64,000 bases of DNA from an uncultured Holophagae bacterium. GTDB lineage: Bacteria; Acidobacteriota; Thermoanaerobaculia; Thermoanaerobaculales; Sulfomarinibacteraceae. The stretch spans positions 80,438 through 144,437 of the forward strand of contig CAWJPY010000004.1 in NCBI GenBank assembly GCA_963844865.1, read 5' to 3'. A model generated the notes under the pieces. It searched no databases, was not told the origin of the DNA, and was given only the letters and a program-made list of their open reading frames with translations. The position numbers and the translations under genes were made by a program. Of the stretch, positions 5,157 to 52,855 are shown in pieces (position 1 is the first letter of the stretch; every line of letters starts with the position of its first letter).

Positions 5157-5172
5157 ATTTTAGTTATATCCA

Positions 5173-5350: not shown

Positions 5351-5405
5351 ACCTGGGTCAAGAGCCGCCGCGGTGGCGCGAGGGCGCTCCCCGGGCCGCG
5401 CCGGC

Positions 5406-7984: not shown

Positions 7985-8148
7985 GGTCGCGTCCCAGCCT
8001 GCCCGACCTGCAGGTGGTCAGCCGCTGACGCTGTTCGCCGACGCTGACACCGACCCCTGTTGTCGCCAGTGTCGCCGCGCACGGAGGCACGGAGATGGGG
8101 CGGTCGCAACGTTGCCATGTCTCTCCGGAGCCGGTCACCGGTGACAGG

Positions 8149-11006: not shown

Positions 11007-11008
11007 GC

Positions 11009-12169: not shown

Positions 12170-12654
12170 GACTTCTGCACCACGATCTTCTCGGGCTGCT
12201 GGGAGCCCTGCTCCAGGAGGTGGACCTGATAGGCCTCGAGGGGCCTGGGGGGCGGGCCCGACACGTTGCGCCCGGAAAGGTCGTACACGCCGCCGTGGCA
12301 GGCGCACCAGATCCGCGCCTTGTCCTTCTCATACTGCACGATGCAGCCCAGGTGGGTGCACACCGCCGAGAAGGCGCGGACGTCCGTGTCGGACACCTTG
12401 ACGACGATCACCGGCTGGCCGCCGAAACGGACGATCTTGTACCCCTTCTCGACGAGCTCGGGATCGTTGACGGCTCCTGCCTCGACCTGGGAGGTGGTGG
12501 CCTCCGGCACCTCCGGCGGGCTCAGGAAGCGGACGACCGGGTACAGGATCGCCACCGCCAACGCCCCCACCGAGGTGCCGAGGAACCAGCTCAGCAACGT
12601 GCGCCGTCCCTGATCGAGCCCCGTTCCTCGCTCCCCTGCGTCCGGGGTGGTCAT
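12166..12654 (-). CDS. Rieske iron-sulfur protein
   Basis: Tat-like GRRTLL plus TM helix; CTHLGC and CACHGG; GPPPRPL. Confidence 0.93.
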
Positions 12655-12937
12655 CCCTGCCACGTGCCTCTCTCGACCTCCATCCCGGGCCGCCGCGCCG
12701 ACGTCGTCGCGGTGCTCGGGGGTTTCGATACGTCCGGATCGAGCCGTGGAATCATTCTTACACATGCCTCCACAGATCGCCAGCGCGGAGCGGGTATCAG
12801 CCACCGCCGCTGTTGCTGTCACTGCCTCTGGTGACGAGGTAACCTCGCAGAGATGCCCGCACGTTGAAATGCCGCGACGTGGTCGCGTACGTCGGGCGCA
12901 GCCTCGGCGCAGGCTTCGGTCGCGGTGGCGCCGGTGC

Positions 12938-14326: not shown

Positions 14327-16314
14327 CCGTCACCTCCTCGCGGCGATCCGTCATCCGCGAGCTCACCATCCAGATCGTCCGAGAGCACCCGCAGCAGCTC
14401 CGCGACAGTCCACGCCTGGGCGATACAGCCCCGCGGGGTGTGGGGAGGATCCCCGTCGAAGATCTCGGAGCAGGTGCCCACCCCCGCGCTACGGAGCTGC
14501 TCCAAGGCGCCGCGCAGAAGCGCGGCAGCCTGCCGGCGTCCCTCCTGGCCCCGCAGTCGGATCAGCGCCGACAGGTACGGTCCGAGGAGCCATCCCCAGA
14601 CGGTCCCCTGGTGATACGCCCGGTCCCGGGAGGCGGGGTCGCCGGTGTAGGTCCCCCGATAGGCGGGGTGGTTGGGAGACAGACTGCGCAGCCCCACCGG
14701 GGTCAGGAGCAGGCTCTCCACTACCGTCAAGACCTCCCGCCCGCGGGCGTCGTCCAGCAGCACATGGGGCAACGACAGGGCGAAGACCTGATTCGGCCGC
14801 ACCGCGGGGTCCGGTCCGTCGGGTCCGATCACGTCGTAGAGGCAACCCAGGTGGGGGTTCCAGAAGAGCTCGGCGAAACGCCGCCGTGCCCTTTCGAATC
14901 GCTCGCGCAGATCTTGGGCCCGCTCCTCGGAGCCGAGCCTCGCCTCGAGCTCCGCCAGGATGGCGAGGGCGTTGCACCACAGCGCCTCCACCTCCACCGG
15001 CTTGCCCATCCTGGGGGTGATCACCTCACCCGCGACCCGGGCGTCCATCCAGGTGAGCTGCACGCCGTGCTCGCCGGCATCGAGGAGACCGTCCCGGGCC
15101 ACCCGGATGCCGTAGCGGGTGCCGCGGTCGTGCCAGTCCACGATCTCCCGGAGCACCGGCAGCAGGTCCGAGCGCACCATCTCCTCGTCCCCGGTGGCCT
15201 CCAGGTAGCGCCGCACTGCAACGAAGAACCACAGGGTGGCGTCCACCGTGTTGTACTCGGGCGCCTCCCCACCGTCGGGGAAGCGGTTGGGCAGCATGCC
15301 CTCATCGACGCTGGCCGCCCAGGCGCGCAGGATGCGGCCGGCCTGCTGGTGGCGATCCGTGGCCAGGCAGAGACCGGGCAGGGAGACCATGGTGTCCCGG
15401 CCCCAGTCGGTGAACCAGTGGTACCCGGCGATGACGGTGGCGCCCCCGTCGCCGCGGCGGACCAGGAACTGGTCGGCGGCCAGGCCCAGGGTCCGCGCAG
15501 GCTCGCCCTTGCCGGCCAGGGGGCCGAGCGCGTCCTCGCGGCGCTCCCGCTCTGCCTGCACCAACGCGAGGGCGTCCCGACCCGCCGTTGCCGTCGTGGA
15601 CAGGAGCACCCCGAGGGGGTGGCCGGGCTCCAGGGTCACCGCGAAGGAGCCGGGGCTCCACAGGTCCTCCTCGAAGTCGAGCCCGCGTTCGTGCTCCCGG
15701 GGGTACTGGAAGCGGTGGTACCAGTCGGCGTCCCCCTGGAAGGAGGCGCCGGGCACCCGTATCCAGACCCGCGGCGCGTGGGCTGCGGCGCGGTAGCGAA
15801 CGGTGTCGCCCTCCACCTCGACCTGTTGTGACAGTGCCGTGGCCGGCCCGAGTGAGTGGATCGGGCGCCAGGTCAGGAACGGCCGCAGCTCCAGGCGGAC
15901 CGGGCCGCTCGCCTCCGCGATCTCGTAGAGGACAGCGGTGGTTCCCTCGCCGAGGAGGCCGGCGATGGTCTTGAGCAGCCGTACCCCGCCCACTCGGTAC
16001 TCGAGCTGGACGAAGACGTCCCTGCGGAAGGCGGCCAGGTGGCGGTAACCCTCGGGGTGGACCACACCGGGATAGCAGTTGCAGCCCAGCTCCACCCGTC
16101 CGCCGTCGAGCTCGAGCGTCTCGTCCAACCGCGACACCAACACCTGTCGGTCCACCGGCGGCGCCCCGGCCGCCACCAGGAGCGCGTGGTAGCGGCGGGT
16201 GTGGGCCCCGCTCACCGTGGAGCTCGCCCAGCCGCCGAGGCCGTTGGTCTCGATCCACTCCAGGCGCGAGGCCCGGTCGAAGTCCGCGAGAACGTCGCCG
16301 GACAGCTCGATCAT
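14323..16314 (-). CDS. Glycogen debranching enzyme (amylo-alpha-1,6-glucosidase, GDE_N + GDE_C)
   Basis: EWIETNGLGGWAS, TRRYHALL, IAGYHWFTDWGRDT, YNTVDATLW, LTWMDA, YHQGTVW, GCIAQAWTVAE. Confidence 0.92.
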   Translation of the reverse strand: MIELSGDVLADFDRASRLEWIETNGLGGWASSTVSGAHTRRYHALLVAAGAPPVDRQVLVSRLDETLELDGGRVELGCNCYPGVVHPEGYRHLAAFRRDVFVQLEYRVGGVRLLKTIAGLLGEGTTAVLYEIAEASGPVRLELRPFLTWRPIHSLGPATALSQQVEVEGDTVRYRAAAHAPRVWIRVPGASFQGDADWYHRFQYPREHERGLDFEEDLWSPGSFAVTLEPGHPLGVLLSTTATAGRDALALVQAERERREDALGPLAGKGEPARTLGLAADQFLVRRGDGGATVIAGYHWFTDWGRDTMVSLPGLCLATDRHQQAGRILRAWAASVDEGMLPNRFPDGGEAPEYNTVDATLWFFVAVRRYLEATGDEEMVRSDLLPVLREIVDWHDRGTRYGIRVARDGLLDAGEHGVQLTWMDARVAGEVITPRMGKPVEVEALWCNALAILAELEARLGSEERAQDLRERFERARRRFAELFWNPHLGCLYDVIGPDGPDPAVRPNQVFALSLPHVLLDDARGREVLTVVESLLLTPVGLRSLSPNHPAYRGTYTGDPASRDRAYHQGTVWGWLLGPYLSALIRLRGQEGRRQAAALLRGALEQLRSAGVGTCSEIFDGDPPHTPRGCIAQAWTVAELLRVLSDDLDGELADDGSPRGGDG

Positions 16315-17959: not shown

Positions 17960-20593
<2,634 letters not shown>

Positions 20594-20713
20594 GACCCTC
20601 CCTGTCGGTGACCGGCCGCACCGTGGCGGCCATCGCTGACGTGCGATGTCTCGCGATCTGCAACATCTCCCGGGGGAGGTTCGTTCCGCCCGCGTCCGCG
20701 ACTGCGACCGGCG

Positions 20714-20753
20714 GCGGCGATCAGCTGCGGCGATCAGCTGCGGCGATCGCCGC
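20714..20753. repeat. Short tandem repeat GCGGCGATCAGCT x2 plus palindromic GCGGCGATCGCCGC
   Basis: Read directly from the intergenic sequence. Confidence 0.7.
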
Positions 20754-21527
20754 TCAGTCGCTGAACGAGCCGTGGCGGCCGGCGCCGCCGGCGAAGCGCA
20801 GGGCGCCCTGAGCGGTCTCGCCGCTGAGGACGGTGCGGGTGGCGTGGCCGAACTCGTTGGCCAGGGCGTCATCGAGGCCCATGCCGAACTGCTCGTGCGC
20901 ACTCTGCCGGTCGCCGTTCATACAGCGCTGTGGGAACCGGGAGATCTCGAGGGCCAGGCGTTCGGCCTCCTCGCGCGCGGTCCCATCCGCGACGACCCGG
21001 TTGGCGAGACCCCAGGCCAGGGCCTCCTCGGCGAGCACAGGCCGCCCCGTCAGCAGCATGTCCTGGGCGCGGGAGAGGCCGATGAGGCGCGGCAGGCGAA
21101 CCGTGCCGCCGTCGGCCAGGGGCACCCCCCAGCGCCGGCAGAAGACGCCGAAGACGGCGCTCTCCTCCACCACCCGGAGGTCGCACCACAGGGCGAGCTC
21201 GAGTCCGCCCGCGACCGCGTGCCCGGCCACCGCGGCGATGACCGGCTTGGGCAGGAGCATGCGGGTCGGGCCCATGGGGCCGTCGGCGCTCATGTCCGGG
21301 TCCATGAGGTTCTGGCGTCCCTCCAGCATTCCCTTGAGGTCGGCGCCGGCGCAGAAGGTGCCGCCCTCCCCCCACAGCACCGCCACCTTCGCCTCGCCAT
21401 CTTCCTCGAAGGCGCGGAACGCGTCGGCCAGCGCGCGGGCAGTGGGTGCATCCACCGCGTTGCGGAACTCGGGACGGGACAGGATCACGGTGGTAACGGG
21501 GCCGTTGCGTTCGCTGCGCACGCTCAT
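20754..21527 (-). CDS. Enoyl-CoA hydratase/crotonase family protein
   Basis: [51 protein letters not shown]. Confidence 0.92.
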
Positions 21528-21658
21528 GGCTGGCTCCTTTCACGATCGCTTCGGGCCAGCCTACGGATGGGCGGCGGCAGCCGTCAAGGGTCGCCTCTTG
21601 CGGCTCGCCGGCGACTCGAGGATGATGATGGCGCCCGGCGGACACACAGGGAGGCCCC

Positions 21659-24851: not shown

Positions 24852-26409
<1,558 letters not shown>

Positions 26410-26421
26410 CACCCCCTCCGA

Positions 26422-39138: not shown

Positions 39139-42100
39139 TCAGGGAATGGCGGCGGCCTCCCCCGCGGCGGTGTCGGCAGCCAGCCTGTTCACCCAGAGCA
39201 CGCCCAGCGCCAGCAGGAGCACCGCCGACAGGATCCCACCGGCCAGGGCTCCGGGATAGGCACGCAGGATCCCCTCGTGCAGGGTCCCCAACAGGGTGAC
39301 CATGGCCGTGGCGAGAGGGATCAATGCGAGATGGAACCGCAGCACGGCCAGGTACGCCAGCAGCAGGATCACCCCCGCGCCGAGCCCGCTGACCAGCCAG
39401 CGAGTGACCGTGCCCACGTCGCTGGCGCCAACCATGACGGGTCCCAGCGCGAGCAGCACGAGGCCGAGGGGGAGACGGGCACGGGTCCAGCCGCGGCTGG
39501 CGACGTGCACGAAGCCCACGACCAGCAGCAACAGGATGGTGCTCGTGATCCACGAGCTCACCGGAGAGATGGCGGTGGCCAGGATCGGCGACCTGGCCGC
39601 CGCCTCTCGGAAGGACGGCCACATGGGCTCGGTGTTCGGCAACAGCCAGAGGCCGACGGACACCAGTCCGGCGATGACGGCCCCCAGACCAATCCCGCCG
39701 GCGATGGCCCCGCTCCGAGCTCCGGGCTGCGGCGGCAGCCAGCGGTGGACGAAGCCGGCGTTGAGCCCCATCCCGGCAGCCAGGAGCAGCAGCACCACCG
39801 CCGAGCCGGCCAGGCCCAGCGCCGACTGCAAGCCGTAGGGCTGGGCCGTGGAGAAGTTGACCACGATCGACGGCCACGAGTTGAAGACCGCCAGACCGCT
39901 GAGCACGAGCACCAGCGCGAAGAACGTCGCGAGGGTGCCCACCGCGAACCGGCCACGGCTCCAACGCACGACCGCGGCCACCACCCCGGCGATGTAGATC
40001 AACACCACCAACAGGGTGCAGACGATGCGCACCACATTGGCCGCCGCCGACCGATTGCGTTCCGCCCTCTCCCAGTCCTCCGGGATATGGATGAAGCGTT
40101 CGCTGTCCACGACCTGGTCGCCGGCGATCTTCACCGCGATCCGGGCCTCTCCGCTGTGCAGCGGATAGGCGGACGGGTCCGAGTACACGAGCCGCCAGTC
40201 CTTGCGCTTCGGGTGCTGGGTCGGCTCGACCGCGACCTCTTTCAACGCCGCCGGATCGAGACCGAACTTCGAGCGGAGCACATTCTCCGCCATGGCTCGC
40301 GCCTGGGCCTCGTCGAGGGTCGCACCCGGACGGTCGTCGGGAAGGCGGTGGCGGACCCGCCGCACCGTGCCGTTTCCGTCCACCCACAGGTCGTACTCCT
40401 CGGCCCGCGCCACCACGTCGCCCTCGAAGTTGGCGTATCGCACGTACCAGTCGGGGGGAGCGAGGAAGCTGCCCAGGAGCTGCCAGTACACCTCCGGTCC
40501 GCCCTCCTGCCAGATGAACACGTCCTCCAAGCCGTAGTCCCCTTGCACCGTGCTCAACGTGCGCCAGGAGGGCCCCTTCTCCGCATCCTGCGCGGCCAGC
40601 GTCCGCGTCGCGACCGAGGTGGCCTCGCCGCGTCCGATCCGGATCGACGGCACCTGGCTGGTGAAGCCGTGAGCGAGTGCCCACACCACGACTCCGATCC
40701 CGCCCAGCACCGCCAGGGCGAGGCTGGCACGGGGTCTGAGACCGGTGCTCGCCGGGACGTGGGCCACGGGCGCCGGCTCCTCCGGCGGAGGTGGTTGCCA
40801 GGCGCCGTTGCGCACGTCCTCGTCGACCTCCCTGAACCCGCCGGATCGCACCCGCCCCGCCAGCACGACCCAGAGGGGCACCAGGACCAGCGCCAGGAGG
40901 AGCGCGCGATCCAGCCAGACGCCCGAGGAGGACGCCGTGAACAGCGGGATCGAGAACCACATCACGTCCGTGGCGAAGTGGAGGACGATGACCGGCAGCA
41001 GCCCGAAGGCGAGAAAGATGAGCCCCCAGCTCGCGGCGGGGATGATCAGCTCCACGAGTCGGGCGTACGCCGGCTGCTGGGCGTAGTTGGCGTGGCCGGC
41101 GCCGAAGACCACCGCCTCCAGGATCAGGGCGCCCGCGATCCACCACCGCCTCCCGCCCAGACGCTTGCCGATGAGCGCCGCCGCAGCCAGGGGCACCGCT
41201 CGGAACATGGTCTCCTCCCAGAAGCCGGCGTGCAGGGAGATGCCGATGGCATTCAGCCACGGCGCGTAGGTGGCGAGGACGTTGGGATCGATCAGGGCGT
41301 CGGAGGGGGTCCACCAGCCGAGCTTCTGATTGGCAAGGGTGTAGAGAAACACCTCATAGGCCAAAAACACCGCCACCGACAGGTATCCGGCGATGGTGAG
41401 GCCGGCGACGTTCCGGGTCCCCGCCACCCGCGGCGACCAGGTTTTCCAGAGCTGGAGGTGATGGGGAAACGCCTTGCGGCTCAGGCTCTCGGCGGCCGTG
41501 AAGGTCACCAGGTACAGCAGGGCCATGCCGATGGCCTGGGCCACGGCCATCACCACCTGTTGGAGGCCGAAGTTGGTGGCCGACACCGCGGTGTCGTAGC
41601 CCATCCAGGCCAGGGGCAACCGGTTGAGGGTGATGGGGATCCACAGAGCGCCGATGAAGATCGCCCACTTCAGGGGCGGTCGCCACAGCATCCAGCGCTG
41701 GCGCAGGAGCAGGAGCGCTCCGATCAGGCAGCCGCCGATCCCGTAGATCACCGCCATGAAGACGAGGGAGCCGGTGGCGATGCCGTTGTTGGCCGACCGC
41801 ATCTGCTCGTAGCGCCGGTCGAAGGCCTGGGGGATCTTGACGAAACGGGTGAGCTCGGTGAGGCGGTCCCCGGCCACCACCAGGCGCAACCGGTAGCGAC
41901 CGTCCTCGCCAACCCTGAGGGACGGCCGCTCGTAGGTGAAGGTGTGGTCGACGCGCCCGCTCGGCCGCACCTCGTCCGCCTGCTCCACCAGGTCGTACTG
42001 GGCGAGCTGAACGCCCCAGTCCGCCGTGGCCGTTCGCTCCGCGATCTGGCGGGCCTGCTCGGTGTCCAGCGCCGCGCCGGGTTCGCTCTCGGGCAGCTTC

Positions 42101-42489
42101 TCGGAGAAACCGTAGGGCTCGCCCGCAGGGGTGAAGCTGACCCGCGTCTCGGTGGGCTCGAACTCCCGGAAGTTCCGCACCCGCCACGTGTACGGAGATA
42201 CGAGTCCCTCCTTGAGCATCCGCCGGAAGGCGTCGTGACCTCCCCCCTCCAGCTCCACGAAGCTCTGCAGCCGGGAGTCGAGGTCGAAGGCCGCCGCCTG
42301 GCGGGAATGCTCCGGCCCCCAGCCACGCTCCTGGGCCAGGCTCCTGGCTGCCTCCATCGCCTGGGCGCGGTCCATCTGCAGGTCCAGGGTCACCAGCGGG
42401 AACGCATTGGAGAAGTTGTGAGCCGCGTAGACGACGCACAGCGCCGTCACGACAACAAAGGCGATCCAGAACACTGGCTTGCGGGTCAT
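39139..42489 (-). CDS. Large internally duplicated membrane protein with a CPBP (CAAX/Abi) intramembrane metalloprotease domain
   Basis: FWEETMFRA, FGAGH and LHFATD CPBP motifs; many TM segments; two similar extracytoplasmic domains. Confidence 0.8.
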   Translation of the reverse strand: MTRKPVFWIAFVVVTALCVVYAAHNFSNAFPLVTLDLQMDRAQAMEAARSLAQERGWGPEHSRQAAAFDLDSRLQSFVELEGGGHDAFRRMLKEGLVSPYTWRVRNFREFEPTETRVSFTPAGEPYGFSEKLPESEPGAALDTEQARQIAERTATADWGVQLAQYDLVEQADEVRPSGRVDHTFTYERPSLRVGEDGRYRLRLVVAGDRLTELTRFVKIPQAFDRRYEQMRSANNGIATGSLVFMAVIYGIGGCLIGALLLLRQRWMLWRPPLKWAIFIGALWIPITLNRLPLAWMGYDTAVSATNFGLQQVVMAVAQAIGMALLYLVTFTAAESLSRKAFPHHLQLWKTWSPRVAGTRNVAGLTIAGYLSVAVFLAYEVFLYTLANQKLGWWTPSDALIDPNVLATYAPWLNAIGISLHAGFWEETMFRAVPLAAAALIGKRLGGRRWWIAGALILEAVVFGAGHANYAQQPAYARLVELIIPAASWGLIFLAFGLLPVIVLHFATDVMWFSIPLFTASSSGVWLDRALLLALVLVPLWVVLAGRVRSGGFREVDEDVRNGAWQPPPPEEPAPVAHVPASTGLRPRASLALAVLGGIGVVVWALAHGFTSQVPSIRIGRGEATSVATRTLAAQDAEKGPSWRTLSTVQGDYGLEDVFIWQEGGPEVYWQLLGSFLAPPDWYVRYANFEGDVVARAEEYDLWVDGNGTVRRVRHRLPDDRPGATLDEAQARAMAENVLRSKFGLDPAALKEVAVEPTQHPKRKDWRLVYSDPSAYPLHSGEARIAVKIAGDQVVDSERFIHIPEDWERAERNRSAAANVVRIVCTLLVVLIYIAGVVAAVVRWSRGRFAVGTLATFFALVLVLSGLAVFNSWPSIVVNFSTAQPYGLQSALGLAGSAVVLLLLAAGMGLNAGFVHRWLPPQPGARSGAIAGGIGLGAVIAGLVSVGLWLLPNTEPMWPSFREAAARSPILATAISPVSSWITSTILLLLVVGFVHVASRGWTRARLPLGLVLLALGPVMVGASDVGTVTRWLVSGLGAGVILLLAYLAVLRFHLALIPLATAMVTLLGTLHEGILRAYPGALAGGILSAVLLLALGVLWVNRLAADTAAGEAAAIP

Positions 42490-42624
42490 GGGCTCCCCTT
42501 TCTGCCCTCGGATCACGCCGTATCGCGTGGGATCGGACCCATCGTACCGAGTGTCGGGATTGTACCCGCTTCCCGGGGCCGCCCGCCCCAGGGGGGTTCA
42601 CAGGACCGCGCAGAGCCCGGTGGC

Positions 42625-44286
42625 TCAGCGGCTGCGTCTGATCATGACCAGCGTGCGGTCGTCGGCGAAGGGGACGCCATCGGCGAAGCGGTCAAGCTCG
42701 CTGCCCAGCTCGGCGGCGATGCCGGCCAGGGGCAGCGCCCGGTGGCGGACGCACGCCGCCAGCAGCCGTTCCTCCCCGAACTCCTCATCGTCGTGGTTGG
42801 CCGCCTCGGTGATGCCGTCGGTGTACAGGATCAGGACATCGCCGGGTTCGAGGGTCACCTCCCGCGCCTCGTATCGTCCGTCCTGAATGATGCCGAGGGG
42901 CGTCCCGGTCGACTCCAGCCACACCGTGTCCCCGTCGGCGCGGATCAGGAGCGCGGGGTTGTGGCCGGCGTTCGTGTAGCGAACGGTCCCGGTGGTGGTG
43001 TCCAGCAGGGCCAAAAAGCCCGTGGCGTACTTCTCCGGCGGGGTACGCTCGAACATCAGCCGGGAGGCCGCGGCGCAGGTCTCATCCGGCCCGAGGGGAC
43101 GTTCCAGAAGACCGCTCAGGAGGGCCTCCAGGAACCCGGTCAGCAGCGCGGCGCCCATGCCCTTGCCCGACACGTCGGCGAGGAAGAGCACGCACTCGGA
43201 GCCCCCGCCTCGCTCGATCACCTTGAAGAAGTCGCCGGAGACCACGCGCGACGGCGTGTTGCCGCCGTGCAGCTCGTACCCGGGGATGTCGGGAAGGCTC
43301 TGGGGCAGCAACCGCATCTGGATCTCCCGGGCGAGAGCCACCTCCCGCTCGAGACGGAGACGCTCCGCCGCCGCCTCGGTGAGGCGCAGGTTCCGGATCC
43401 GCATGGCCGCCACAGACGCCAGGGACGTCAGCAGCTCCATGTCCTCCTCGCCGAACTGCCGGACGGTCAGCGTCGAGCCCAGGACCACCATCCCGAGGGC
43501 GCCCTCAGGATCCAGCAGAGGCGCCGCCACGAGGCTGCGCACACCGGCGTTGAGCATGCTGACCGCCTGATTGAAGCGCTCGTCGACCTCCATGTCCAGC
43601 ACGAGGGCGGCCATCCCCTTGTCCGCCACCTCCTCGATCAGATGCCTCGAGTAGAGACAGCGATGGTGGGAGCCGCGCCGCGACCGGCTGGCGGCACACT
43701 CGTACTCGCCGTCGTCGTTGCGCAGGAAGATCGCGCCTTCCTCCGGGTGGAGCTGCTGGAACGCTCGCTCCAGGATGAGGTCGAGCAGCTCGTCCAGGGC
43801 CACGGACCGGCCGAGTGCCTGGTGCACCTCGTTGAGCATCTTGATCCGCTCGGCGTAACGGCGGAGCGCCTCGCCCTCCGCCGCCGGGGGCGGGGCCTGG
43901 GAAGGCTCGGAGCGCTCCAGCAGCTCGGCGGCCGGCCGGAACACCGTGTGCTCTCCCCAGTGACTCGAGCTGCCACTGATACCGGGATCTCGGGCGGCCA
44001 GTCGGCGGACCGCGACACTGCTCGCACCGAGGGTGATCACGTCGCCCTCGGCCACCACGCTGGACACCTCCACCTTTTGCTGGTTGACAAGCGTTCCGTT
44101 CCGGGACCCGAGGTCCTCGAGCAGCCAGTGGCCGTTCTGCCGAAACAGCCGCGCATGACGGCGCGAGAGGGAGCGGTCAGGGATCACCAGATCCGCCGCA
44201 GGAGAACGGCCGATCACCTGATCGTCGCCATCCAGCGTCCGCTCGAACGGCATTCCTCCTGCCGGCATCACATACAAGCTGATCAT
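42625..44286 (-). CDS. FHA-GAF-PP2C (SpoIIE/RsbU-type) serine phosphatase
   Basis: FHA IGRS...LSRRHA...DLGSRNGT; GAF; SGDFF, ADVSGKG, NAGHNP, YTDGITEA, DDRT. Confidence 0.92.
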   Translation of the reverse strand: MISLYVMPAGGMPFERTLDGDDQVIGRSPAADLVIPDRSLSRRHARLFRQNGHWLLEDLGSRNGTLVNQQKVEVSSVVAEGDVITLGASSVAVRRLAARDPGISGSSSHWGEHTVFRPAAELLERSEPSQAPPPAAEGEALRRYAERIKMLNEVHQALGRSVALDELLDLILERAFQQLHPEEGAIFLRNDDGEYECAASRSRRGSHHRCLYSRHLIEEVADKGMAALVLDMEVDERFNQAVSMLNAGVRSLVAAPLLDPEGALGMVVLGSTLTVRQFGEEDMELLTSLASVAAMRIRNLRLTEAAAERLRLEREVALAREIQMRLLPQSLPDIPGYELHGGNTPSRVVSGDFFKVIERGGGSECVLFLADVSGKGMGAALLTGFLEALLSGLLERPLGPDETCAAASRLMFERTPPEKYATGFLALLDTTTGTVRYTNAGHNPALLIRADGDTVWLESTGTPLGIIQDGRYEAREVTLEPGDVLILYTDGITEAANHDDEEFGEERLLAACVRHRALPLAGIAAELGSELDRFADGVPFADDRTLVMIRRSR

Positions 44287-44430
44287 GGTGCAACTCCTGT
44301 CGATAACGAGAGTCCGTCTCAGATAATAACACCATGAGTGCAGAAAAACATCCACGGGGGAAACGACCGACGTTGGATGGCTCGTGGCGAGTCCCACGGT
44401 TTGGAGGCCACAAGGCGAGGTCCGCCCGCG

Positions 44431-45571
44431 CTACTCCGCCACCGGCAGGCGCACCGTGAAACGGGTCCAGGCGCCGAGCTGACTGTCCACGTGGATGGTG
44501 CCCTGCGCCTCCTCCACGATGCGCTTGGTGATGGCCAGGCCCAGCCCCGTGCCGCCCTGGGTCTTGGTGGTGAAGAAGGGGTCGAAGACGCGCCCCATGA
44601 CATCGGGCGGAATCCCCGCACCGTTGTCCTCCACCTCCAGGCGCACCCAGGAGTCCTCCGGACGGATCCTCACGGCGACCGTGTTCTGGGACCGAGGTCG
44701 GTCGGGCAACGCCTGCATCGCGTTCACCATCAGGTTGGTCATCACCTGGCCGAGCTTGTTCGGTGACCCCACCACCCGCGGCACCTCCTGCAGATCGACC
44801 TGGAGCTCGGCGCGCTTGAGCAGCGCCGCCTTCACGAACGTGATCGTCGAGCTCGACGATCTCGCGGAGATCGGCACTCACCTCGAGGTCGGAGCGGCGG
44901 TGGCTGAGGTCCATGCCCCGCGTGATCTCGGTGATCTGCTCCACCGCCCGGACCGCATCGCTGAGCTGCTGCCGGGCGCTGGCGACTGCGTCCACGTGGG
45001 GCCTCTCCACCCTGGCGCCGATCACGAGCCCCTGGGCCAGCCGGTCGAGCCTCAGGTTCGCCAGATCGAGTCCCATCACCAGAGCGGCCAGCGGGTTGCG
45101 GAGCTCGTGGGCGACCCCCGCGGCGACCACACCCAGGGCATAGGTGCGTTCCGTCTCCAGTAACCGGGTCTCGAGCTGGTTGATCTTCTTGCGGGTCTGG
45201 TAGGTCTCGATGGACTCCCGCAGGACGGCTTTCAGCTCGATCGGCTCCCAGGGCTTGCGCAGGTAGCGGCGGATCTTCCCGCGATTGATGGCGTCGATGG
45301 CGTCGTTGAGATCGCTGTACGCCGTGATGAGGATCCGGATCGTGTCCGGGTAGACGTCCTTGGTGGCCTCGAACACCTCGACGCCGGTCATCCCCGGCAT
45401 GCGCTGGTCCACCAGGAGGACCGCCACCTCCCGCTCCTTCAGGATGTCGAGCGCTTCGGGTCCACTGGCGGCGGTGATGACGTCGAACTCCTCCTCACAC
45501 GTCGCCTTCAGGACGACGAGGTTCGCAGCATCGTCATCCACGTAGAGGATCGTGTCGTCCACTGCCGCCAT
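44431..45571 (-). CDS. Receiver-histidine kinase hybrid (REC-HisKA-HATPase, PhcR-like architecture), frameshift at about 44850
   Basis: ILYVDDD, VDQRMPGMTG, RILITAY, KPW; AGVAHELRNPL; in the second frame QVMTNLMVNA, EDNGAG, FDPFFTTK..GTGLGL. Confidence 0.88.
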
Positions 45572-45785
45572 CTTAGCAACACTACGAGCACGTGGCGACT
45601 GGAGTTGCGGCTATGCGATCCCGGCTTCGTCGACCATTCGCGCAACCTGCACGCCCTCAACAGGGCACGAGGTAACACACGCCGAAAAGACGCGTGCCGA
45701 ATACGAATACGACGTCACCGGCGACGCTCGCACCACCTTCGGACGACGTCCAGTACGAAAGAGACTTCCTGGTCGAATCACACGC

Positions 45786-46787
45786 TCATGGCCGCTCAAA
45801 CGTCAGGCTCACGTTCGTCCCGCCAAATCCAAACGAGTTCACCAGGAACCGCGAAAATGTCCTCTTGATGGTCGTCTCGGAATAATTGAGCACGAACTCC
45901 GGACTGTTGCACGTTTCGATGCCTGGTGTCTCACCACGCTTCTGGAATGCCAAAACACCATGGATCTCCACCGCTGCACAGGCACCGAGTGTGTGTCCGA
46001 CTCTGTGTTTCTCAGCGACGATGAAGGGCAGGTCTCGAAACACACGCTGCATTCCCCGATACTCGGCGAGGTCACCCTTCGATGTTCCCGTCGCGTGCGC
46101 CACGACCAGATCGATCTCAGGACGCCCCGCCATTTCCAGCGCCTGAACCATGCACTCCGTAATGTACTCCGAGCGCGGCTCTGGCATGACGCGATGATAG
46201 GCATCACAGGTCATTCCAACACCCGTGATCTCTGCCACCACCTGGCGAGGCCGAACCTCCTCAGCCTCCAAGATGAGGACCCCGGCGCCCGCTGAGGGCA
46301 GGAAGCCGTCCCGCCGCAGATCGAACGGTCTGCACACGCCGCACTTCGTCACGGCACCGGTCCTGCGAAATCCCTCTTCCGTCTTTGGAGAAAGCTCATC
46401 GGCTCCTCCCACGATCGCCCGATCGATGACGCCTCCCTTGATCAGCTGATATCCCGTGGCGATCGCATACGCTGCACTCGCGCAGGCCGCTGCCGTGGCA
46501 AATGCTGGTCCATGAACATCGTATTGGCGCGCTATGGCGCTCGCTGCTTCTCCGGGATGAAAGTTGGAGATGAAGTACGGCCCAACTCTGCCGCTCTCAA
46601 AGGACCGTGTCCCACCGAGTCCACTCCCCATGATGATCCCGGTCCGATCGAAACTGCTGACTCGACTGTCTCCGACCGCACTTTCCACGGCCGTCCGAGC
46701 GAGCTCGACAAAAGATCGCTCCGCAGCGGCCGCACCCCAGACGGCACCGGTACCGGACACGAACACCCTTCTCGCTATGTCCGTCAA
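45786..46787 (-). CDS. Stand-alone, shortened beta-ketoacyl synthase (FabB/FabF-like)
   Basis: AACASA (Cys), CRPFD..RDGF, AHATGT (His), KHRVGHTLGA (His), NSFGFGGTN; 333 aa; lower GC. Confidence 0.88.
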   Translation of the reverse strand: MTDIARRVFVSGTGAVWGAAAAERSFVELARTAVESAVGDSRVSSFDRTGIIMGSGLGGTRSFESGRVGPYFISNFHPGEAASAIARQYDVHGPAFATAAACASAAYAIATGYQLIKGGVIDRAIVGGADELSPKTEEGFRRTGAVTKCGVCRPFDLRRDGFLPSAGAGVLILEAEEVRPRQVVAEITGVGMTCDAYHRVMPEPRSEYITECMVQALEMAGRPEIDLVVAHATGTSKGDLAEYRGMQRVFRDLPFIVAEKHRVGHTLGACAAVEIHGVLAFQKRGETPGIETCNSPEFVLNYSETTIKRTFSRFLVNSFGFGGTNVSLTFERP

Positions 46788-46883
46788 CAGTGACTCCCTA
46801 CGCGAAACGTCAGACGGTTCTTAAGAGAAAAACCAACATCCGGGGCGAGAATCGCAATCACAAACAGACGACGCCCATGACAG

Positions 46884-48348
46884 TCAGGGCTTTCTGACGA
46901 GCAGGAAGAAGAACGCGCCATTCGGCTCTTTCACGACCTCAATCTCGGTGGACTCCGGCAACTTGCGGGTCAGCTCTCGCATCTCCTCTTCGTTCCGATA
47001 TATCAAGGACCAGTCGGTCAACATCTCTGCAGACCAGAAGAAATCGTTGGGTGCGACGGCGTTTCCTACCGCAATCAGGCCTCCCGGAGCGAGCAAATCG
47101 TACATCGCGCCGATGAGCTTCTGGGCACTGAACTTCTTGAGGTAGTCGAAGACGCCGGCCGCATAGATGAAGTGCTGAGATCCCGGCTCTCGCAAGGGAA
47201 GGCCCTCGGTCAGCATCTGCCCGAATGCCAGATTGAGCAGATGGAGATCGACCGAGAGCCCCACTTGCTGATCTCCTTCTGGCTTGCCCTGTAGGCTGCG
47301 CTCAACGCCTTCTTCCGGATCGATGAGCGTCCAGGCCATCCTCCCGGGCCATCCTTTGACCTTTGCAATGTACTCTGACGCTTCGCGGGCGGGACCGCAG
47401 CCCAGGCTCACGATTCTGAAGTCGCTCTCTTCGCCGCTCGATTCGACAATCCGCCGATGCTCCCCTGCGATCAACTCGACCACGAGGTCTTTGCGTCCGC
47501 GCACGCCGGCACACAGAGGATGCTGGAGACTGACCTTGTGCATGGCCCGCGCAAAGACGGAATCACCTTCGAACGATCGTTGTAGTAATACGACATCAGT
47601 TGATAGTCCCCCGGATAGCCAAGGGGTTTGTAGTAGGCCCGGCTGTCGTGGGGAACATCGTGGATGAGTGGGACAAGGAGCGTCTCGGTGAACTCTTTGG
47701 CAGCGAGAAGTACGTTCCGCTGTTCGAGGAACCGGGATGCGATGATCGCCGCTTGCGTCTCGAGCCGTCTCCTCGGCTCGAGTAACGCATCCGCTGCTCG
47801 AGCGGTGAGTCGAGGATCCCCGGCTCACCGGCTCCCTCCGCGCGCAGCCGTTGTTCATGGTAGTCCAGCGAACGTCGATGGTACTGGAAAAAGTGCCCGA
47901 TGCGGCCGACGATCGCCTGGTAGTCCGCCGGGACCAGCCGTTCCACAGCGGCCGGTCCCTCGCACAGGCTGCGCTCGAGCTTCTTCTCGTCGTCGCGTCT
48001 CTGCATCGCGGGGAGATCCAGGAACCCGTTGGTCAACCCGAGACCGATCTGGGAACCCCGTGACCCACGCTCGATGCGAGCGACGCGGGCCGCACCCTCG
48101 TAGACCTCCTCGTTGTACAGGAGAAGCGAGAGCCGAAGTTCCTGCCCCACCTGCCACTCGGACTGTCGCCCATTCAGCAAGAGGGACACTCCATTCATGG
48201 AAACGTCGAAGACCGGGAACGCTTCGCCTTCAATTACGACTTTGGGCGTCGCGTCGCGCGACAACAACTCACGAATGGGCTGGCGGTCGGGCCGATAAAA
48301 CACTGAGCGACCGACCGCACCGATGAGCGACTCATATGATTTCGCCAT
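46884..48348 (-). CDS. PilZ-like plus SAM-dependent methyltransferase, PhcB-like (3-hydroxy fatty acid methyl ester signal synthase family); broken by at least two frameshifts
   Basis: N-terminal RPDRQPIR/DVSMNG; a middle frame absent from the ORF track (~47580-47810) reads ...EFTETLLVPLIHDVPHDSRAYYKPLGYPGDYQLMSYYY; then FEGDSVFARAMH, RIVSLGCGPARE, FIYAAGVFDYL, PGGLIAVGN, DWSLIYR. Confidence 0.78.
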
Positions 48349-48395
48349 CACACGCTCTCCCTGCGTTCGTCAACGGCCACGAATCTCCATCCGCG

Positions 48396-51134
48396 TCACA
48401 CGAACTCCGATGTCGGCTCGCTCTCACGGGGCCGCCGTCTTCCAACGGCTGGGATCTCAACCACGAAACATGCGCCCCGGCCCGTCTGCCTGAGGGGGCG
48501 GAGCTCTCCTCCGTGCTCCTCCATGATCTGTCGAGATAAGTACAGCCCGAGCCCGGTCCCGGTTCCGTCCTTTCGGCGGGTGTAGAACGGGTTGAATATC
48601 CGTTCGGCATCCTCGGTGGCGATACCCGTCCCGTCGTCACACACCTTGACCTGCAACGTGTCTCCATCTTCCTCCACGTGGAGCCAGAGGGTAGCAGCTC
48701 CCGCCCGGATCGCGTTGTCGATCAGGTTGAGCAGCACCTGGTTGATGGGTCCCGCCGGCGCCCGCGCGAGGCGGTCGGTTTCGTACTCCCGGTGCACGGT
48801 CACGCCCTCCAAGCGATGTGCGAGGAGGGTCAACGTCGCATCCAGGCCTTCCCGAATGTCACAGCTGTGGGTGACCCCCGCCTCGGCCGGGCGCGCATGG
48901 GAGTCGAGGGCGGTGGTGATCCCCTCGATCCGCTGTGCGCCGTCGGCGATGACCTGGATGAGCTGCCTCGTCATCTCGGGCTTGGACCTGCCCCCCGATA
49001 GCACCCTGGCGGCATTGAGGATGGCATTCACGGGATTCCGCACCTCGTGCAGTATGCCGGCCGCGAGCGTGCCCACCGCCGCCAGCTTCTCCTGCTGGGC
49101 GAGCTGCAGTCCGAGGGCCCGAAGCCTGAGCTGGGCCCGGATCCGAGCCATCAGCACCCGGGGGTGAAACGGCTTGGCCACGAAGTCGTCCGCGCCGTGC
49201 GCATACGCTTCCAGGGTCGCCTCCGAGCCCACCCTCGCCGTGAGCAGGATGACCGGCGTGGCCCGCAGCGCCGGATCGCTCTTGATGGCCCGGGCGAGAT
49301 CCGTGCCGCTCATCTCCGGCATCATCACGTCCGAGACCACCAGATCGGGCGACTCGGCACGCACCAGCTCCCACGCTTCGCGCCCGTTCTCGGCCAGCAA
49401 CAGCTCGTAGTGGGGCCGAAGCAGCGTCCGGATGAACTCCCGCACTTCCTCGTGGTCCTCCACGAGGAGGATGCGAGCCCGTCTGAGCCCATCGAACAAG
49501 ACCGGCGGGTCCACCACCCCGCGCAACTCCTCGAAGTTCCGCTCGATCTCGCCCCCACCCTCCTCGACGTCCAGGGGCAGCAGGTCCTCAGCCCGCCGTC
49601 CCTGCGCGGCCTCGCGATCGAACTGCTGGCGCCGTTCCACGACCTCCGGCCGGATGTGCTCGCGACCGAAGGGAAGGACCACCCTGAACCGGGTAAACAC
49701 CTCAGGTTCAGACGCAACCTCGATGGTCCCTCCGTGGAGCTCGACGAGCTCCTTGGCCAGGGCCAGACCGATCCCCACTCCCCCTTCGCGCCGCCGGTCA
49801 CCCGGACTCACCTGGAAGAAGCGTTCGAACACCTTCGGCAGGTCTTCGGGGGGAATTCCCGGACCGGAGTCTTCGACCTCGACACAGACACCTCCATCGA
49901 CATCAGCGATCCTTATGGAGATCTTCCCTCCAGCCGGCGTGAACTTGATCGCATTGCTGACCAAGTTCGTGAACACGATCTCGAGCCGATGAGCATCGCC
50001 CCAGATCTTTGCACCAGGCGCATCACTGATCAGCGTAAAATCGATGGACTTTGCCATCGCGGCAGGCAGGCTGTTCTCGTGCACGCTCGCTGCCACGGTT
50101 CTCACATCCATCTCGGCAAGGTTGAGGCGCAATCCTCCTGCATCCAAGCGCGACAGGTCGAGAAGATCGTTGATCAGGCCCAGCAGGCGCTCGGCGTTTC
50201 GCCGGATGACATGGACCTGTTGCCTGTGGCTCGGGTTTTCGATGTCCTCTGTAAGCTCGGCAAGAGGTGCCAAGATCAGTGTCAGCGGGGTCCGCAACTC
50301 GTGGGAGACGTTTGCGAAGAACTTGCTCTTCAGGCGATCGAAGCCCTTCAGATCTTCCAGAGCGCGTTGGAGGTCGATGGAGGTCTGGGCCAGGTCGAGA
50401 CGGGCTTCCGATTCACGTTGCGCCACAGCAGAAAGCTGCGCCCTGCTCGAGTAGTCCCTTCGCGCCAGGTCATACTTGAAGTATGCCGCGTACACGCTGA
50501 TGACGGCTGATGTCAATACAAAAAAGGCACTCTGGACAACGTCGCGAACAGCCACATCCCCAGTCCATCCTGCCGCGAAGATGGCGACACTGAATCCGAG
50601 TGAAACCAACAGCACAGACATCGTCCATCGTGGCGGCCACATGGGGACGAGACCAGTGGCAAAGAACGTGACCGCAAATCCCAACACATAGCCCGGGAGA
50701 TACTCACCTGACAAGGGAAGCATGGGCGCAACGCCATTCACGTACGCCAGGCATACGATGACCCACGCTTCCCAGGTATAGCGCGCAAGTCCGAACTTGT
50801 GCACGCTGATAGCAACGAGGGTGACAACCGTTACGACACCCAAGCGCAAGGCGAGGAAGTGCGCCCAGTGCGTCGGCAGAAGGACGTAGTCGAAAATGCT
50901 CCATGTTAGGTATACCGGATTGAAAATGCATGCCGTCCAGAAAAGATTCCGTAGGTTTCGCTGTCGAAGTTCCGCGTGAAAGGACGCGATATCGAGATCC
51001 ACTTCAGGAGTCTGAAAGGGAACGCGTTTGCCCTCCAGTCTCGGAGAGACCGGCTCGCGCAGGCTTGTACCCGCGAGTGCCACCGTGGGACTTCCTCCGA
51101 CGGCCTCCCAATGGGAATCTTCGACTTGTTTCAT
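48396..51134 (-). CDS. Membrane sensor double hybrid kinase: ~6 TM - HisKA - HATPase - REC - HisKA - HATPase
   Basis: TM block (WSIFDYVLLP..FLALRL); FFANVSHELRTPL; NLVSNAIKFT; RILLVEDH/SDVMMP/KPF; second LAAGILHEVRNP and GTGLGL; start uncertain. Confidence 0.9.
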   Translation of the reverse strand: MKQVEDSHWEAVGGSPTVALAGTSLREPVSPRLEGKRVPFQTPEVDLDIASFHAELRQRNLRNLFWTACIFNPVYLTWSIFDYVLLPTHWAHFLALRLGVVTVVTLVAISVHKFGLARYTWEAWVIVCLAYVNGVAPMLPLSGEYLPGYVLGFAVTFFATGLVPMWPPRWTMSVLLVSLGFSVAIFAAGWTGDVAVRDVVQSAFFVLTSAVISVYAAYFKYDLARRDYSSRAQLSAVAQRESEARLDLAQTSIDLQRALEDLKGFDRLKSKFFANVSHELRTPLTLILAPLAELTEDIENPSHRQQVHVIRRNAERLLGLINDLLDLSRLDAGGLRLNLAEMDVRTVAASVHENSLPAAMAKSIDFTLISDAPGAKIWGDAHRLEIVFTNLVSNAIKFTPAGGKISIRIADVDGGVCVEVEDSGPGIPPEDLPKVFERFFQVSPGDRRREGGVGIGLALAKELVELHGGTIEVASEPEVFTRFRVVLPFGREHIRPEVVERRQQFDREAAQGRRAEDLLPLDVEEGGGEIERNFEELRGVVDPPVLFDGLRRARILLVEDHEEVREFIRTLLRPHYELLLAENGREAWELVRAESPDLVVSDVMMPEMSGTDLARAIKSDPALRATPVILLTARVGSEATLEAYAHGADDFVAKPFHPRVLMARIRAQLRLRALGLQLAQQEKLAAVGTLAAGILHEVRNPVNAILNAARVLSGGRSKPEMTRQLIQVIADGAQRIEGITTALDSHARPAEAGVTHSCDIREGLDATLTLLAHRLEGVTVHREYETDRLARAPAGPINQVLLNLIDNAIRAGAATLWLHVEEDGDTLQVKVCDDGTGIATEDAERIFNPFYTRRKDGTGTGLGLYLSRQIMEEHGGELRPLRQTGRGACFVVEIPAVGRRRPRESEPTSEFV

Positions 51135-51245
51135 ACCCCAGCATTCTAACACTCGGGCGGAGAAAGAGATGGTAGTCAGCGAACCGCACTCTATCGCGTG
51201 ACGAGTTGGGCTGCCAGCTTCTCTCCGCAGCCTCGAAGGAGGTCT

Positions 51246-51265
51246 AAAAGCCCTTCGCAGGGCTT
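51246..51265 (-). terminator. Possible hairpin plus short U-tract upstream of the sensor kinase
   Basis: Minus strand AAGCCCT-GCGA-AGGGCTT followed by TT. Confidence 0.3.
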
Positions 51266-51571
51266 CTAACCGTCGGGGCGGCGGGCGAAGGGAATGGAGG
51301 CGACCTCTTGACCTCAGGGCGGTGCCGAGACCATCGGGCCGATCACCCGCCTGGTACCCCGTCGCCGCGGCGCCCAACTTGCCTCCGTCCAGGGCGGTCT
51401 CGCGGACCCCGTTGTGCAGGGCTCGCACCCACAACTAGTCGTCACCGGCCACTGCACCACGCTGGGACAGCTTTGGTTAGAATTGATTCTTGAGAACGGC
51501 TTCTTGGAGCATGGACCGTATTTCAGATCGGGCATCGAGTGTGCATATACCAGCGGCCGGGAGCACTTGAC

Positions 51572-52855
51572 GTGAGCTTCACACACTTCCCAGTGGTCGA
51601 GATCATCCTCATCGGCAGCTTCGCACTGCTGCTGGTCACCGTGTTTCTGCTCGGCCGTCTGTCGACGCCAGGCGCCTCCCGGCGCACCGCGCAGCCTCAG
51701 GCGCCGGCAGATCCCCAGTCCGCTGCGTCTCCCTTGCGCCGTCTCGAGCATGACCTGTCGGTCATGGTGGACTTCATGAACGAGTACACGGTCCTGATGT
51801 CCGACCTCAACGAACAGACCGAGGTGCGCGGCATCCCCGCGGTCCTCCTCAACGCCATGGTCCGCATGTTCAGGGCCGAGCAGGCGGCCGTCCTGGTGCC
51901 GCGACGGGGGACCTTCGTGGACCCGAAACGCGTCGACCGCATGATCGTGGCCGCCGCGGCCACCAGTGAGCGGGGGCTCGACGTGGGGACCGAGGTGCCC
52001 ATCGGGGAGGGGCAGCTCGGCATGGTTGCGGAGACCCGGCGGGTGATGGATCGCGCCGACTTCAGTCAGATGGCGGCCTCGAACCAGGCCAGGTTCCGAT
52101 CCTCGCACCTTCCGATCTTCGAGGTGGCGGCGCCGATGGTGCACGGCGACAACACCCTCGGTGTGATCGCCTTCTCGCGGCCGCAACGGCACCACCCGTA
52201 TGAGAAGGAGATGCTCCAGATGATCGCCAAGCTCGGCGCCATCACCTGGCACAATCTCACCGCCTACCGCAACGTCCAGGTGGCGGCGGACGTGGACGAG
52301 CTCACCAGGATCTTCAACAAGCGCGCGCTGAAGACGCAGCTGAGCGAGCTCGTGCTCCGCGCGCGGTCCTCGGGCGGCCGGGTGGGCCTGTTCCTGTTCG
52401 ACATCGACCACTTCAAGAACTACAACGACCAGAACGGCCACATCGCAGGGGACGAGGCGCTCCGGTTGCTGGCACGGATCGTCAAGGACAGCGTCCGAGC
52501 GGATGACATTTTCGGCCGCTTCGGTGGCGAGGAGTTCCTGCTCATCATGCCCGGACGCACACCAGCCCAGGCGATGAGCGCCGCGGGGAACATCCGTCAG
52601 CGCATCGAGATGTACGACTTCCCCTTCGGGGAGAAGCAGCCCCTGCGCAGGGTCACCGTGAGCGGCGGCGTCGCCACGTTTCCCGATGACGCCCGGGACG
52701 CCGTGGAGCTCCTGCTGGCCGCCGATGACGCCCTGTATCGGGCAAAGGGCGCCGGCCGGAACAAAGTCCTCCGGGCCGAAACCGGTCTCAACCCCATGCC
52801 GGTACCCCATTCCATCCAGCTCAATGACGACGACGACGAGGCATCCCACGCCTGA
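51572..52855 (+). CDS. Membrane-anchored GAF-GGDEF diguanylate cyclase
   Basis: N-terminal TM; GAF; DELTRIFNKR, DIDHFKNYND..GHIAGD, I-site RADD, GRFGGEEF. Confidence 0.9.
   Translation: MSFTHFPVVEIILIGSFALLLVTVFLLGRLSTPGASRRTAQPQAPADPQSAASPLRRLEHDLSVMVDFMNEYTVLMSDLNEQTEVRGIPAVLLNAMVRMFRAEQAAVLVPRRGTFVDPKRVDRMIVAAAATSERGLDVGTEVPIGEGQLGMVAETRRVMDRADFSQMAASNQARFRSSHLPIFEVAAPMVHGDNTLGVIAFSRPQRHHPYEKEMLQMIAKLGAITWHNLTAYRNVQVAADVDELTRIFNKRALKTQLSELVLRARSSGGRVGLFLFDIDHFKNYNDQNGHIAGDEALRLLARIVKDSVRADDIFGRFGGEEFLLIMPGRTPAQAMSAAGNIRQRIEMYDFPFGEKQPLRRVTVSGGVATFPDDARDAVELLLAADDALYRAKGAGRNKVLRAETGLNPMPVPHSIQLNDDDDEASHA

Follow-up and report, generated by a model that had tools for sequence, protein, structure and literature searches.

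We analysed a 64,000-nucleotide stretch of contig CAWJPY010000004.1 (hereafter, the window) from an uncultured Holophagae bacterium, in which positions 44431..51134 hold a putative cell-cell signalling cassette. All real genes of this interval lie on the minus strand and, as an earlier note on this DNA had described, four of them are co-oriented there: a large membrane kinase, a methyltransferase, a stand-alone ketosynthase and a receiver-controlled histidine kinase, here called the relay kinase. On balance, we favour reading the cassette as a new, PilZ-fused form of a Phc-like synthase-receptor-relay module, wired in the Lvr manner and built from a three-gene operon and an inserted ketosynthase gene. 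The kinase, methyltransferase and receiver-kinase genes form a conserved three-gene operon in related Acidobacteriota. The methyltransferase is homologous to the Burkholderiales PhcB clade across both its helical domain and its S-adenosylmethionine (SAM)-binding domain, and the membrane domain of the large kinase is homologous to that of a PhcS-like kinase.

The methyltransferase and its relation to PhcB

PhcB is the enzyme on which Ralstonia depends for its quorum signal, a methyl 3-hydroxy-fatty-acid ester, namely methyl 3-hydroxypalmitate or methyl 3-hydroxymyristate. Our comparison with the Phc system used proxies, namely an operon on a Paraburkholderia graminis plasmid and relatives from Cupriavidus and Massilia, in place of Ralstonia's own proteins; the plasmid collection returned 131 records, none of them from Ralstonia. 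The main comparator, the conjugative plasmid pPHS1_P (locus L088), carries a phcBSRQ-like operon at 3367-9797 that encodes a methyltransferase (468 amino acids), a membrane kinase (445 amino acids), a receiver (134 amino acids) and a receiver protein (344 amino acids), an arrangement that equals the phcB-phcS-phcR-phcQ order given in the available sections of the published accounts (PMC6989110, PMC7694676). A gene of the cyclopropane-fatty-acyl-phospholipid synthase family lies ~1 kb upstream of this plasmid operon. The plasmid methyltransferase shares 64-92% identity with the 120 matches listed, which include proteins of Cupriavidus, Massilia, Pseudoduganella and Paraburkholderia. Several of these relatives bear the name 'extracellular factor (EF) 3-hydroxypalmitic acid methyl ester biosynthesis protein', which we take to be the KEGG name for PhcB. 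Residue R22, conserved in the PhcB homologues of Paraburkholderia and Cupriavidus according to the available part of PMC6989110, is invariant in our 13-protein alignment of the Burkholderiales PhcB clade.

The second gene of the cassette (46884..48351, minus strand) encodes, when read correctly, a protein of 489 amino acids that we assign to PilZ-fused, PhcB-like class I SAM methyltransferases, based on its frame pieces, an intact protein on record (P0002), hhalign, AlphaFold and Foldseek. BLASTP aligned it with the methyltransferase of pPHS1_P over 245 residues (E 1e-27, 28% identity), with the motifs KPLGY(P/A)GDYQ, GCGPA, AG(V/L)FDYL and W.LIYRNE in register. At the level of profiles, hhalign matched the family to the Burkholderiales PhcB clade over 388 columns (probability 99.95, E 1.8e-38, ~24% identity), and another hhalign comparison with proteins of this clade gave E 1.5e-31. 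The earlier note had placed the repaired protein in the PhcB family. Its homology to PhcB-type proteins is borne out by these alignments, using the Burkholderiales proxies; orthology is not, as identity is low (24-28%) and the N-terminus differs, and the protein belongs to a PilZ-bearing sister clade rather than being a PhcB orthologue. Because it falls in this distinct clade at 24-28% identity, the signal chemistry of Ralstonia is not transferable to it. Every methyltransferase motif quoted in the note was found in the sequence: FEGDS, SLGCGPARE, IYAAGVFDYL and DWSLIYR all lie in the frame ending at 46887, and RAYYKPLGYPGDY lies in a 117-codon stop-to-stop frame (47824..47474) that is, as the note had remarked, missing from the list of open reading frames.

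The note had overlooked the N-terminal domain (48034..48294, minus strand), which is of the PilZ type. PilZ domains are intracellular receivers of cyclic di-GMP (c-di-GMP), and RxxxR and (D/N)x(S/A)xxG are the motifs of those that bind it. A Pfam PilZ match (25.3 bits for the window piece and 22.8 bits for P0002, cutoff 22.5) is joined here by both motifs, RxxxR (R22-R26) and DxSxxG (D48-G53), so the domain is predicted to be a PilZ domain with complete c-di-GMP-binding motifs and, presumably, to bind the nucleotide. Residues R19, R22, R26, D48 and G53 are invariant in an alignment of 22 family members, of which 11 match Pfam PilZ, as against none of the 13 PhcB-clade proteins. In a scan of species, each represented by a single genome, at least 586 stretches encode a relative of the methyltransferase; counts of related loci given here refer to the best 80 of these. 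A loose pattern search found both PilZ motifs in 66 of the 80.

Members of the family are ~490 amino acids long, and a protein search found 65 relatives, seven of which bear the same JGI name for an EF 3-hydroxypalmitic acid methyl ester biosynthesis protein. Weak Pfam matches to class I methyltransferases were seen at the C-terminus of the methyltransferase pieces. The AlphaFold model, built with 22 members (pLDDT 88), comprises an N-terminal β-barrel, a long helical domain and a Rossmann methyltransferase domain. Foldseek matched it to generic class I methyltransferases, with the uncharacterised Bordetella protein 3ocj and the C-methyltransferases SgvM and CurJ among the top matches. The nearest clusters in the ESM Atlas are PilZ/methyltransferase proteins, functionally unnamed; NCBIfam has no family for the three methyltransferase pieces, and a sequence search of the PDB with the family profile gave no matches.

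Like other PilZ-enzyme fusions, for example the cellulose synthase BcsA, the family has an N-terminal β-barrel, in which RxxxR and DxSxxG are invariant; unlike them, the fusion to a PhcB-like methyltransferase was not found in print in our literature search. In the available text of a PilZ survey (10.1101/814665), the sole methyltransferase mentioned is CheR, the partner of MapZ. The literature search, which covered articles apart from their supplements, likewise brought up no article that treats PhcB homologues from Acidobacteriota or Myxococcota, or any that bear a PilZ domain. We know of no experimental description of Phc signalling beyond Ralstonia and its close relatives.

Two side observations concern other copies and relatives of this gene. 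A second methyltransferase copy, in fragmentary form, is present in two genomes of the window's order (G039:C7:33515-34363 and G040:C19:2854-4324): one copy has two internal TGA codons, and its counterpart is broken into three pieces. Both may be pseudogenes or the result of additional errors in assembly. A plasmid of Pseudanabaena sp. PCC 7367 (locus L089, 5037-7656) encodes a shorter relative of 280 amino acids without the PilZ part, located beside a Tn3 transposase and a recombinase and convergent with a HAMP histidine kinase gene and a receiver gene.

In the window, the methyltransferase reading is spread over three frames and that of the relay kinase over two. Independent contigs, taken from up to four public runs of two studies and accepted at 90% likeness to the window, differ from it by six small indels within 44848..48382: the window has one extra base at 44848, +C at 47250, +TT at 47309, +T at 47575, +C at 47809 and, between genes, +G at 48382. 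Each difference is shared by every run with a contig covering the site, with the exception of 47809 in run X4, and the extra base at 44848 is absent from the contigs of all four runs. The best matching run may be the window's own sample; run X4 comes from another study. Correcting these differences reproduces the reading of P0002, which agrees with the three frame pieces of the window apart from their junctions and one garbled stretch of ~20 residues. Compared with the intact version, the methyltransferase has four indel sites, rather than the two breaks counted in the note, and the pair at 47309 and 47250 compensates, garbling the ~20 residues while the frame stays open. The frameshifts are errors of the assembly, not of the organism. 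Since the contigs of independent runs carry the corrected bases, both broken genes are whole in the organism, and the frameshifts call for no biological account. For annotation, this means that the assembly contains indel errors that break up real genes.

Two frameshifted genes out of four would also suit a decaying, horizontally acquired island in which the methyltransferase and the relay kinase are pseudogenes, and so would the base composition. Over 44000-52000 the GC content dips to 0.60-0.65, against ~0.70 elsewhere in the window, and third-position GC is lowered to 0.66-0.76 in the ketosynthase (0.66), the methyltransferase pieces (0.68-0.76) and the 5' part of the large kinase, compared with 0.87-0.93 in the relay kinase and the flanking genes; foreign origin or relaxed codon bias may account for this. 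Against decay, none of the indels is kept in the independent contigs, the intact protein on record matches the window outside the indel-garbled parts, and a gene with four indels whose amino acids are unchanged beyond the garbled stretches points to sequencing error rather than decay. We consider an island of pseudogenes highly improbable and have rejected it, as the window's indels are missing from the independent contigs. Variants in the contigs of other runs (9 of 15 synonymous in the large kinase, 1 of 6 in the relay kinase) were too few to be used, and those contigs may be from relatives.

Elsewhere in the window, same-strand open frames overlap by 100-220 nucleotides at 9294-14329, 17963-21539 and 24855-26421 (minus strand). 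Given six indel errors in 3.5 kb of the cassette, further frameshifts are conceivable there; in a GC-rich genome, the overlaps could also come from ordinary open 5' extensions.

The two kinases and the conserved operon

The large kinase (48396..51134, minus strand) has 912 amino acids from the ATG at 51134 and contains two HisKA, two HATPase_c and one Response_reg domain according to Pfam, in the order HisKA-HATPase-REC-HisKA-HATPase. Its membrane sensor domain (residues ~60-220; 50475..50957, minus strand) consists, in a hydropathy scan, of ~5-6 hydrophobic helices without a large periplasmic loop, the segments running from residue ~62 to 218. Both H-boxes (residues 278 and 696) and the receiver Asp (residue 602) are intact. 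With these segments, two DHp-CA cores and a receiver, the protein agrees with the double hybrid kinase of ~6 transmembrane helices seen in the earlier note.

The same note had likened this protein to PhcS, and here too the comparison is favourable. BLASTP places the large kinase collinear with the PhcS-like kinase of pPHS1_P from the membrane region through the first kinase core. A sensor-domain profile of 61 membrane domains (the window's and those of 60 related loci) matched the membrane region of the PhcS-like kinase over 123 columns (hhalign probability 97.1, E 5.4e-11), and the reversed-sequence control gave E 0.082. Pfam MASE8 stayed below threshold on the sensor domain, with E 0.2 for the window and 0.0012 for Paraburkholderia. 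The methyltransferase is thus flanked by an adjacent membrane sensor kinase of the PhcS type, the comparator being the kinase beside the Paraburkholderia phcB-like gene.

The relay kinase (44431..45571, minus strand) has the layout REC-DHp-CA. It is split by the one extra base near 44848, with Response_reg and HisKA matched by Pfam in the first piece and HATPase_c in the second. A receiver-plus-kinase layout had been ascribed to this fourth gene by analogy with PhcR; the Pfam domains agree with it, and PhcR is described as a kinase/regulator hybrid in the available text of PMC7694676. The third gene of the pPHS1_P operon encodes a 134-amino-acid receiver alone, compared with REC-HisKA-HATPase in the window.

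Taken as a whole, the cassette resembles the Ralstonia phcBSRQ system in its SAM methyltransferase, homologous over the helical and catalytic domains with KPLGYxGDY and GCGPA, in the neighbouring kinase with its homologous multi-pass sensor domain (by comparison with the proxies), and, as far as domain layout goes, perhaps also in a receiver-plus-kinase protein of the same operon, the layout of PhcR being taken from the accessible portion of PMC7694676. Unlike Phc, the N-terminus of the window's methyltransferase is a canonical PilZ domain, whose motifs and Pfam match are absent from the 13 PhcB-clade proteins. Moreover, the sensor kinase carries a fused receiver with another kinase core, the gene order is kinase-methyltransferase-REC/kinase, so that the methyltransferase is not the first gene, and the operon holds an inserted ketosynthase. 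A PhcQ-like fifth receiver gene is also absent from the cassette: the next gene encodes an FHA-GAF-SpoIIE phosphatase, and the operons of the relatives end after the REC-kinase.

A second resemblance is to the Lvr proteins of Leptospira. As the accessible parts of two reports describe them (PMC5863495, PMC13269768), LvrA is a sensor-DHp-CA-REC-DHp-CA protein and LvrB a REC-DHp-CA protein encoded side by side with it, LvrA phosphorylates LvrB, and LvrB is activated by phosphorylation of its receiver (the latter from PMC13269768). The window's two kinases have the LvrA and LvrB layouts as given in the available sections of PMC5863495, and the pair of domain orders is accordingly the same. The Lvr proteins differ in being cytoplasmic with a PAS sensor, compared with the membrane domain that serves as sensor in the window's kinase. 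In addition, the methyltransferase gene lies between the window's two kinase genes, and there is no LvrC-like gene next to them. Among the NCBIfam models, the large kinase matches LvrA best, at 299 bits against a cutoff of 1200, and the relay kinase matches LvrB at 72 bits against a cutoff of 500; LvrB was not among the PDB matches of the REC-HisKA piece at E <= 1e-8. The resemblance to Lvr is a likeness of design, not membership.

By record title, the best 80 loci come from Acidobacteriota (Thermoanaerobaculia, Holophagae), Myxococcota, one Methylomirabilota and many Alphaproteobacteria (Sneathiella, Parvibaculum, Rhizomicrobium). The cassette has its nearest relatives in metagenome-assembled genomes with the titles Thermoanaerobaculales, Thermoanaerobaculia or Acidobacteriota, which accords with the acidobacterial origin that the earlier note had thought probable. 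A neighbouring kinase match that reaches the membrane domain was present in 60 of the 80 loci, and seven had no kinase match at all. The double kinase, methyltransferase and REC-kinase stand on one strand in 10 of the 80, with 28-119 nucleotides between the methyltransferase and the REC-kinase; in 40, all alphaproteobacterial by record title, a single membrane kinase is convergent with the methyltransferase. Orthologues of the large kinase, 50-60% identical and collinear, lie upstream of the methyltransferase in related Acidobacteriota loci, and orthologues of the relay kinase, 46-66% identical over the N-terminal piece, follow it in 10 related loci. We delimit the unit as a three-gene operon because opposite-strand genes follow it in five of the six acidobacterial relatives inspected. 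Within the window's own taxonomic order, the methyltransferase occurs in 41 of 119 genomes, in 29 of the 73 of high quality, and in 11 of 36 genera.

The ketosynthase gene

Between the methyltransferase and the relay kinase, 97 nucleotides after the former, 215 nucleotides before the latter and on the same strand, lies a stand-alone, shortened FabF/FabB-like ketosynthase gene (45786..46787, minus strand; 333 amino acids). It starts at a TTG preceded, six bases upstream, by GGGAG, a plausible ribosome-binding site. Both Pfam ketoacyl-synt halves, N and C, are matched. A Cys, two His and a Lys are the catalytic residues of condensing enzymes; the corresponding C102, H231, K260 and H265 fall in columns that are invariant across 19 ketosynthases. 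The protein resembles FabF/FabB (KAS II and KAS I) in these thiolase-fold halves and Cys-His-Lys-His positions. It differs in length (333 against ~404-419 amino acids), in its low identity of at most 38% in the protein search, and in lacking ~55 residues after the first strand and ~11 later on. A full-length match over the fabF or fabB cutoffs was not obtained: the best NCBIfam model, TIGR03150 fabF, gave 197 bits against a cutoff of 493.75, and all 23 matches were below cutoff. From its sequence, the ketosynthase looks translatable and catalytically complete.

The earlier note supposed that the ketosynthase could build a dedicated acyl precursor in a new system and suggested looking for it near phcB homologues elsewhere, a lack of synteny being one of the outcomes that it named as refuting. 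By this test a built-in role is unsupported, as the gene proved not to be syntenic: a FabF-like gene (E <= 1e-10) was found within ~9 kb in none of the 80 related loci. An orthologue is present in one of the 119 genomes of the order, the window's own, compared with 41 of 119 for the methyltransferase. At E <= 1e-40, two of the 119 genomes had a ketosynthase match, the window's own and an ordinary, 39%-identical gene in a 414-codon frame. A search of 5.8 billion protein clusters gave ordinary FabF/FabB proteins of 404-419 amino acids, and the best of these non-self matches reached 38% identity. Two other, longer ketosynthase genes are located elsewhere in the genome. No repeats flank the gene. 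The ketosynthase is a recent and, as judged from these comparisons, lineage-specific insertion of ~1.3 kb into the conserved operon. It may alter the acyl precursor or chain of the signal, gene position being its sole tie to the system.

One could go further and propose that the ketosynthase works within the system, condensing malonyl-acyl carrier protein (ACP) with an acyl primer into a dedicated 3-oxo- or 3-hydroxyacyl precursor that the methyltransferase would esterify, so that the signal differs from that of the relatives. The position inside the operon with short gaps on the same strand, the GGGAG before the TTG and the invariant catalytic positions are in favour of such a role, as are the contigs of run X1, which span the gene without indels, and the third-position GC, which is near that of the methyltransferase and unlike that of the flanks, as if the two shared a history. 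We nevertheless think it unlikely. The absence of FabF-like genes from the related loci speaks against it, and the distribution in the order (one genome compared with 41) implies that the system works without a ketosynthase. With nothing nearer than 38% identity there is no basis for reconstructing history or selection, and the absence of repeats leaves nothing to show the mode of arrival. The missing residues and the low fabF score count against this role as well, and the cassette contains no gene for an ACP, a reductase or a thioesterase.

Proposed signalling route and neighbouring genes

We postulate that the methyltransferase would turn a small lipophilic carboxylate into its membrane-permeant methyl ester, and that c-di-GMP probably gates this activity through the PilZ domain. 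Inside the membrane, the neighbouring kinase may then sense the ester with its multi-pass sensor domain. The large kinase would phosphorylate its own receiver, which would control the second kinase core, and would also pass phosphate to the receiver of the REC-DHp-CA protein encoded downstream, in the way that LvrA phosphorylates LvrB in Leptospira. The REC-DHp-CA protein, in turn, would relay the signal to a regulator encoded elsewhere. That the product is an ester, that it diffuses and is perceived in the membrane, that c-di-GMP exerts control, and that phosphotransfer follows this order are suggestions drawn from the domain content and from the comparisons with Phc and Lvr.

Several points weigh against this reading of the cassette as a Phc-like module. 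The homology is known through proxies of the Paraburkholderia, Cupriavidus and Massilia type rather than through Ralstonia PhcB, PhcS and PhcR. Alignment with the PhcB clade fails over the first ~70 residues, where the PilZ motifs lie, and at 24-28% identity to that clade the substrate may differ. The fold matches are generic and carry no pointer to a substrate, so that O-methylation of a fatty acid stays a prediction. The PilZ scores are marginal (22.8 against 22.5 for P0002), with 11 of 22 members matched, and the LvrA and LvrB scores in NCBIfam are far under their cutoffs. Finally, the cassette contains neither a PhcQ-like gene nor an output regulator.

Some of the same features would be expected if the methyltransferase makes no diffusible signal at all and acts as a c-di-GMP-controlled modifier of a membrane lipid, or of a protein in CheR-like adaptation, with the kinases sensing or regulating an internal state. 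PilZ domains being receivers of an intracellular messenger, the low identity to the PhcB clade, the generic fold matches and the lack of an export gene in the operon all fit such a modifier. Weak CheR matches, seen in 3 of 22 family members and in 3 of 13 PhcB-clade members, also point this way, but they are below threshold and cover the SAM-binding part alone. Against an internal modifier, the pairing of the methyltransferase with a kinase whose sensor is wholly intramembrane is kept across phyla and gene orders. Because this pairing is conserved, a synthase-receptor pair for a lipophilic ligand fits. Moreover, PhcB, the one homologue that has been characterised, is indispensable for a methyl ester signal that is secreted, according to the available parts of PMC6989110 and PMC7694676. 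We therefore hold an internal modifier to be rather improbable and retain the synthase-receptor-relay module as the preferred reading.

A wider proposal, which we put forward as a doubtful one, is that PilZ-fused PhcB-like methyltransferases and their cognate membrane kinases constitute a widespread family of cell-cell signalling systems, present in at least 586 species genomes, mainly of Acidobacteriota, Myxococcota and Alphaproteobacteria. In it, production of a lipophilic methyl-ester autoinducer would be gated by intracellular c-di-GMP, and the autoinducer would be read by an Lvr-type kinase cascade, and in one lineage a captured and remodelled ketosynthase would have re-tuned the acyl part into a private dialect. 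To our knowledge, cell-cell signalling of soil Acidobacteriota is almost unknown. If the methyltransferase-kinase pair does make and sense a diffusible ester, it would give these bacteria a testable quorum-sensing system and would link the second-messenger state of c-di-GMP directly to autoinducer output. The conserved methyltransferase-kinase family merits experiment on these grounds. The ketosynthase is a single case and supports no general claim; it would offer a natural experiment on the divergence of signal chemistry.

The surroundings of the cassette were also inspected. Promoter and terminator scans of the locus gave results at chance level. A GAF-GGDEF diguanylate cyclase gene (51539-52855, plus strand) adjoins the cassette, whose methyltransferase has a PilZ domain, and is divergently transcribed; GGDEF matches occur anywhere in just 5 of the 80 related loci, so the pairing with the cassette is not conserved. 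Directly downstream of the relay kinase lies the FHA-GAF-SpoIIE phosphatase gene (PP2C-type; 42628-44397, minus strand), which was matched in none of the 80 related loci. An open frame of 1686 codons (39277-44337, plus strand) runs antisense to real genes, and its low-complexity translation is rich in Arg, Gly, His, Asp and Gln; it looks like a GC-rich artefact rather than a gene.

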